In this document: positions 54,598-54,755 of the stretch, piece by piece
Layout of the letters: every line of letters begins with the position of its first letter
How positions within the stretch are numbered: position 1 is the stretch's first letter
Assembly: GCF_024700885.2 (NCBI RefSeq)
Contig: NZ_CP117016.1
Length of the DNA: 64,000 bases
Reading direction: 5' to 3' (one strand)
Origin: Escherichia coli
Lineage (GTDB): Bacteria > Pseudomonadota > Gammaproteobacteria > Enterobacterales > Enterobacteriaceae
Notes under the pieces: generated by a model
Told to the model about the DNA's origin: nothing
The model's database searches: none
What the model saw: only the letters and a program-made list of their open reading frames with translations
Program-made: the position numbers and the translations under genes

Positions 54598-54645
54598 TCA
54601 ATACCTCTGTAAGTCGCACATAGAGTAAGTTTCGAATGCACAATA

Positions 54646-54679
54646 GCGTACACTTGTACGCCGAACAAGTCCGATCAGC
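54646..54679 (-). promoter_or_regulatory. fabB operator region: FabR palindrome plus adjacent FadR-type site
   Basis: Palindrome gcgtacacttgtacgc (54646..54661); minus strand of 54663..54679 reads GCTGATCGGACTTGTTC, resembling the FadR consensus. Confidence 0.55.
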
Positions 54680-54755
54680 CAATTAATAGAGAAATTTGCG
54701 CAGCCTGACACACATCGCTAAGATCGAGCCACCGCCTGTAAGACGAGTAACTTAC

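Follow-up and report, generated by a model that had tools for sequence, protein, structure and literature searches.

Abutting FadR and FabR sites in the fabB promoter of Escherichia coli: position, surroundings and conservation among Enterobacterales

Introduction

The rate of unsaturated fatty acid synthesis is limited by beta-ketoacyl-ACP synthase I, the product of fabB. The FabR site of the fabB promoter was originally predicted through phylogenetic footprinting, and Henry and Cronan are said to have placed, in 1992, the FadR site of fabA in the '-40 region' of that promoter.

FadR activates both fabA and fabB, and long-chain acyl-CoA frees it from DNA (PMC3460868). FabR is a repressor of fabB and, to a smaller extent, of fabA, and its binding is enhanced by unsaturated thioesters: FabR together with C18:1-ACP leads to repression, while C16:0-ACP leads to its relief (PMC4804515; PMC11525553). 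The published FabR consensus is the 18-nt sequence AGCGTACACGTGTTCGCT (PMC4273635); in the absence of ligand, binding also depends on the flanks (PMC4804515), so that the 18-mer may not be the whole determinant. In Salmonella, FabR ChIP-chip gave a peak in the spacer between fabB and STM2379, and fabB was the most up-regulated gene of a fabR deletion mutant, at 3.1-fold (PMC4804515). For E. coli itself, a 56-nt gel-shift probe of fabB, TCTATTAAATGGCTGATCGGACTTGTTCGGCGTACAAGTGTACGCTATTGTGCATTC, has been published with the FadR site in bold and GGCGTACAAGTGTACGCT given as the FabR palindrome, and this probe was shifted by FadR proteins (PMC4259882; PMC4537474). The transcription start of fabB has been located 37 nt before the ATG, with FabR, FadR and CpxR boxes drawn on the promoter (PMC7083825). 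The regulatory element of fabB is thus already known, and is a textbook case.

We examined this promoter in a 64,000-nt stretch of an E. coli genome, called here the window, following up a reading of the sequence alone that had proposed operator-like sequences for both regulators upstream of fabB. The site sequences, their limits and the transcription start were taken from papers reproducing them and from probe tables. The sites, their uniqueness, the identity with the probe, the position relative to the published start and the conservation come from the sequence. For the binding of the proteins, their responses to ligands and whether they activate or repress, we rely on the literature, and these functional statements derive from work on K-12, Salmonella and Shewanella.

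Results

The fabB-mnmC spacer

The regulated gene, fabB, occupies 53377..54597 on the minus strand, as an open reading frame of 406 aa with its ATG at 54597. Divergent from it, mnmC runs from a GTG start at 54756 to 56762 on the plus strand. Both assignments follow the list of open reading frames and the annotation, for fabB the RefSeq annotation of a strain that is 100% identical. Between the two lies an intergenic spacer of 158 nt, 54598..54755 (ORF list and annotation of the identical strain), the limits of which are exactly those that the sequence-only reading had given to the fabB-mnmC divergent region. When 54300..55000 was compared by megablast with complete E. coli genomes, several strains proved 100% identical over the 701 nt, and matches were found in 5,425 of the 5,426 genomes, with matched features annotated as fabB and mnmC.

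Aligned with K-12 MG1655, the spacer differs at 54682 and 54707 only, neither of which falls inside the FadR or FabR sites described below; 54682 belongs to an AT-rich stretch upstream of the FadR site. The equivalent MG1655 positions are obtained by adding 2,387,008 to the window coordinate, that is 2,441,653-2,441,670 for the FabR site and 2,441,671-2,441,687 for the FadR site.

Two abutting sites

The FadR (GntR-family) site is the 17-nt sequence GCTGATCGGACTTGTTC on the minus strand (54679..54663), with arms CTGATCGGAC and a 16-nt core, CTGATCGGACTTGTTC, at 54678..54663 on the same strand. It was recognised from the sequence itself, the consensus, weight matrices and the published probe. 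The sequence-only reading had pointed to this very 17-mer as FadR-like, as the reverse complement of 54663..54679, and was exact to the base. Compared with the consensus nCTGGTCnGACnTGTT, the site carries one mismatch, G to A, among 13 specified positions. The FadR pattern CTGGTCNGACNTGTT, allowed at most one mismatch, matched the window once, at 54664..54678, with one mismatch; in shuffled sequences the mean was 0.07 matches, and 7 shuffles out of 100 contained at least one. Scored with a weight matrix built from published sites including that of fabA, the site ranked 1st of ~128,000 positions, and with a matrix derived from fad-gene sites only, without fabA, it ranked 3rd of ~128,000.

The other top weight-matrix matches of the window were CGCTGGTACGATTTAGA at 35539-35555 and AGCTGGTCCGGATAATT at 102-118, both on the plus strand. 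They are probably due to chance; that at 35539-35555 lies inside the 3' end of an open reading frame (34690..35583).

The FabR (TetR-family) operator is the 18-nt sequence GGCGTACAAGTGTACGCT on the fabB sense strand, i.e. the minus strand of the window (54645..54662), identified by its match to the consensus, by the published probe and by its conservation. It is an imperfect palindrome with the core ACAnnTGT, and it agrees with AGCGTACACGTGTTCGCT at 15 of the 18 positions on either strand. With up to three mismatches allowed, AGCGTACACGTGTTCGCT found this site only in the window, and found it on both strands; shuffled sequences gave a mean of 0.08 matches, and none of 100 shuffles contained two or more. 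The motif scans that the sequence-only reading had suggested as a check therefore gave unique consensus matches for FabR and FadR in the window, and a weight-matrix rank of 1 or 3 for FadR.

Within the 18-nt site lies the perfect palindrome GCGTACA-CT-TGTACGC (GCGTACACTTGTACGC) at 54646..54661, also read correctly to the base in the earlier reading, as the sequence and a repeat finder both confirm: its 7-nt arms, GCGTACA and TGTACGC (54646-54652 and 54655-54661), show 100% complementarity and are separated by 2 nt. Perfect palindromes of this 7+2+7 form occur 8 times in the 64-kb window, against ~3.9 expected. Palindromy by itself is unremarkable; it is the specific sequences that are remarkable.

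The minus strand of the window reproduces the published fabB probe with a single difference, at 54682, which falls in the AT-rich flank outside both sites. The dual control of fabB by FabR and FadR that the sequence-only reading had named is borne out in that both elements are found base for base in this probe and that their positions fit the promoter. Two of its wordings needed amending. The sites had been called overlapping, whereas 54679..54663 and 54662..54645 abut, and its own coordinates even leave 1 nt between them. 'Operator-like' holds for the FabR site, but FadR activates fabB (PMC3460868), which makes 'operator' a loose term there.

An imperfect dyad, ACTTGTACG / CGAACAAGT, with 8 of 9 positions paired (54652-54670), spans the junction of the two sites. 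It is probably incidental: it relies on the two central bases of the FabR site, which are variable, it is reduced to 6/9 at fabA, and both sites contain TGT/ACA.

Position within the fabB promoter

Converting the published distance from the ATG at 54597 places the fabB transcription start at 54634 (+/-1 nt), on the minus strand. Relative to it, the FadR site spans about -45..-29 and the FabR site about -28..-11. A conserved -10 hexamer, TATTGT, agreeing with the consensus at 4/6, is found at 54645..54640 (minus strand, -11..-6), 6-11 nt upstream of the start, and the FabR site ends with the first T of this hexamer. Upstream of it by 17 nt stands a weak -35-like hexamer, TTGTTC (54668..54663, minus strand), with 3/6 agreement to TTGACA. 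This hexamer forms the promoter-proximal end of the FadR site, and the FabR palindrome makes up the 17-nt spacer. From the 17-nt spacing and the published start, we infer that these are the -35 and -10 elements of fabB.

A consensus scan of the region for sigma-70 promoters and terminators, requiring at least 4/6 per hexamer, found nothing. For the promoter this is because the -35 reaches only 3/6, below the threshold, as expected for an activator-dependent promoter. The arrangement is indeed that of an activator-dependent sigma-70 promoter, with a recognisable -10, a poor -35, a spacer of 17 nt and a start 6-7 nt past the -10. The FadR site overlaps the -35, as at fabA, and at -45..-29 it stands in the same register to the -10 as in that promoter. 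The FabR operator sits, as expected at fabA and fabB, in the core promoter downstream of the FadR site, at -28..-11, its last base being common to the -10. Such positions agree with FadR acting as activator and FabR as repressor.

Conservation of the composite

Every one of the 5,425 E. coli genomes holding the region has the same 36-nt core, 54645-54680. A 159-nt query covering the spacer matched at 99% identity or more in 1,577 genomes, at 95-99% in 3,740 and at 90-95% in 108. The core is present once per genome (median of 1 place), which rules out a repeated or mobile element.

For comparison between species, a scan for FabB in representative genomes yielded 80 loci, from Enterobacterales and one Alkalimonas. 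The FadR core CTGATCGGACTTGTTC is exact in 67 of the 80 fabB upstream regions. The FabR operator is kept in 78 of these orthologous promoters, as judged by the pattern GC[GT]TACANNTGTA[AC]GC followed by TANNNT, and 67 of the 80 species have the full FadR and FabR composite with TANNNT after it, in every case 74-95 nt ahead of the ATG. Variation is free at the two bases in the centre of the palindrome (AG in 43, AC in 26, TC in 6 and GG in 3).

Column identities, expressed relative to the window in a MAFFT alignment of 81 upstream regions, reach 93-100% over the FadR core (54678-54663). Across the palindrome they amount to 79-100% in the arms and 58-86% at the two central bases (81 sequences). 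The six TATTGT columns stand at 100/99/48/32/81/100%, also among 81 sequences, i.e. a T-A-n-n-n-T pattern. Beyond this footprint, which runs from 54678 to 54638, column identity in the neighbouring 5' UTR is 6-60%. Such a pattern is a classic phylogenetic footprint, the signature of a protein-binding site together with a -10 hexamer.

The loci that depart from the composite do so in several ways. Rosenbergiella (two loci), Candidatus Schmidhempelia bombi and Alkalimonas keep the FabR palindrome without the FadR half. The endosymbiont Candidatus Gullanella endobia has lost the FabR half, and a degraded FadR-like half remains. In two loci of Pantoea symbionts the FadR half is altered by point changes, and two Edwardsiella loci have a 1-nt insertion where the FadR and FabR sites meet.

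The mnmC side of the spacer

At 77 of the 80 loci, fabB and mnmC form a divergent pair, remarkably stable and compact, whose spacer measures 151-197 nt and in most cases 151-173. Near the mnmC end, conservation points to a candidate mnmC promoter on the plus strand (54696..54724), made of TTGCGC (54696-54701), a 17-nt spacer and TAAGAT (54719-54724). A block overlapping the first hexamer, AAATTTGC at 54692-54699, is 88-98% conserved, and TAAGAT shows T95 A98 A78 G46 A90 T96 % (81 sequences in both cases). AAATTTGC stands at a constant distance from TAAGAT, while the interval separating it from the FadR site differs by 8-12 nt from one genus to another. For this reason AAATTTGC is better read as the -35 of mnmC, and a role as UP element or alpha-CTD site of fabB was rejected. 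Taken together, AAATTTGC and TAAGAT probably constitute the mnmC promoter.

In K-12, the CpxR box of fabB is GTAAGgctgcGCAAA, at -112..-98 from the ATG, within a footprint at -119..-94 (PMC7083825, Table 1). At the published position, 54709..54695 on the minus strand, the present strain reads GTCAGgctgcGCAAA: the polymorphism at 54707 changes the first CpxR pentamer from GTAAG in K-12 to GTCAG. Across Enterobacterales this first pentamer is poorly conserved. The second, GCAAA, coincides with the putative -35 block of mnmC.

Discussion

A composite regulatory element of fabB

The element described here is almost certainly a composite regulatory element of a sigma-70 promoter of fabB, made of a FadR activator site and a FabR operator. 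FadR binding at this site, and its release by long-chain acyl-CoA, are known from the published gel shifts with the fabB probe and from the literature, and would apply to the copy in the window. FabR binding, modulated by unsaturated and saturated acyl thioesters, is likewise known from the literature on the identical K-12 sequence and from the Salmonella ChIP, and should hold for the window site.

In the mechanism that we propose, a FadR dimer on 54679..54663, centred at about -37 over the poor -35 TTGTTC, would activate transcription; it would substitute for the poor -35 contact and recruit or stabilise RNA polymerase. When exogenous fatty acids are supplied, long-chain acyl-CoA would release FadR from the DNA and fabB expression would be lowered. 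A FabR dimer on 54662..54645 would fill the interval between -35 and -10 and touch TATTGT, so that RNA polymerase would be hindered. This repression would rise with unsaturated acyl-ACP or acyl-CoA and be relieved by saturated species, giving a feedback on the unsaturated to saturated ratio. We infer the steric step from this arrangement.

Alternative readings

Palindromes of the same form are not rare in the window (the 8 reported above), and FadR-like weight-matrix matches also occur inside coding DNA, so that both motifs might be functionless chance matches. This has hardly any chance of being right. The sequence-specific matches are the only ones in the window and greatly exceed what shuffled sequences give; the core does not vary among 5,425 E. 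coli genomes and is kept across ~80 species at a fixed promoter position; the composite is duplicated at fabA, and the same sequence was used in published binding assays. That the palindrome works in RNA instead, as a hairpin, an attenuator or a terminator, seems equally far-fetched. An inverted repeat of 7 nt is able to pair in principle, but this one lies upstream of the fabB start at 54634 and upstream of the mnmC gene, so that neither mRNA is expected to hold it. Moreover, the hairpin loop would be 2 nt long and no run of T follows the palindrome; the fold z-score against shuffles is 0.55, with 138 of 200 shuffles folding at least equally well; and an Rfam search of the region, with E up to 1, gave no match. 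Variation between species keeps the bases of the arms and not their pairing, as seen in the change of GCGTACA to GCTTACA on one arm only.

Could the spacer rather be a bidirectional regulatory unit, in which the FadR and FabR sites also control mnmC? FadR would then be centred ~60 nt, and FabR ~77 nt, upstream of the predicted mnmC start, near 54731. The genes do form a divergent pair with a nearly fixed short spacer in 77 of 80 species (151-197 nt), no more than 17 nt separate the putative mnmC -35 from the FadR site, and the authors of the Salmonella ChIP-chip study regarded both genes flanking the spacer as possible FabR targets (PMC4804515). However, the list of genes whose expression shifted more than 1.3-fold upon deletion of fabR in Salmonella, topped by fabB, does not include STM2379 (mnmC) (PMC4804515). 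Between genera, the FadR site and the mnmC block differ in spacing by 8-12 nt, whereas the spacing from the FadR site to the fabB -10 is constant, and the literature, searched without mnmC by name, gave no paper tying mnmC to FadR or FabR. We therefore hold such a bidirectional control to be very unlikely. A related proposal, that AAATTTGC serves primarily as the mnmC -35 and that occupancy of this stretch by FadR, FabR or CpxR would couple mnmC to membrane-lipid status, is speculative and in our opinion improbable; if it were true, expression of a tRNA-modification enzyme would be tied to membrane-lipid status through back-to-back promoters.

A Dam site, GATC (54673-54676), is included in the FadR site, and likewise at fabA, while the repressing sites of the fad genes read GGTC. 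The G to A change of the activating fabA and fabB sites thus creates GATC, and a still weaker idea is that it could make FadR binding methylation-sensitive. A literature search on Dam methylation and the FadR site found no link. A role for Dam methylation was rejected, as it has no support in the literature and the conservation of GATC is inseparable from that of the whole site.

Significance

The composite element of the fabB promoter is how E. coli tunes its membrane fluidity to fatty acid supply. Its value here is that of a positive control, in which two experimentally characterised sites were located to the base by reading sequence. The current understanding is unchanged; what the comparative data add is the invariance of the composite in Enterobacterales and the lineages that are without the FadR half.

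Comparison with fabA and other known systems

The closest system is the fabB promoter of K-12 itself: with 54598-54755 identical save two bases outside the sites, its probe, the sites marked on it and the start apply directly. The E. coli fabA promoter contains the same composite, which stands in an unchanged register to the -10 and reads CTGATCGGACTTGTTC-A-GCGTACACGTGTTAGCT-ATCCT. Compared with that of fabB, 32 of the 36 bases are identical, as is the 16-nt FadR core; at fabA, one base separates this core from an 18-nt FabR site, which leads into the TA of the -10 hexamer. The fabA FabR site, AGCGTACACGTGTTAGCT, is a less perfect palindrome than that of fabB, the -10 hexamer is TATCCT instead of TATTGT, and fabA has additional start sites (PMC7083825). 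In the literature, fabB is described as being mainly under FabR, and fabA mainly under FadR. Apart from the composite, the two genes have in common a 9-mer, CTTACAGAG, located in the Shine-Dalgarno region shortly upstream of the start codon (54605-54613, minus strand, for fabB; locus L082 for fabA), which could be there by chance or as a relic of common promoter ancestry.

Outside E. coli, palindromes with the core ACAnnTGT are found upstream of unsaturated fatty acid genes, at fabA and fabB of Shewanella and Vibrio and for DesT, the FabR homologue of Pseudomonas. Shewanella fabA carries adjacent FadR and FabR sites in a composite like that of E. coli fabB, whereas fabB of Shewanella and of Vibrio is without a FadR site (PMC4537474), which parallels the situation that we observed in Rosenbergiella, Candidatus Schmidhempelia and Alkalimonas.
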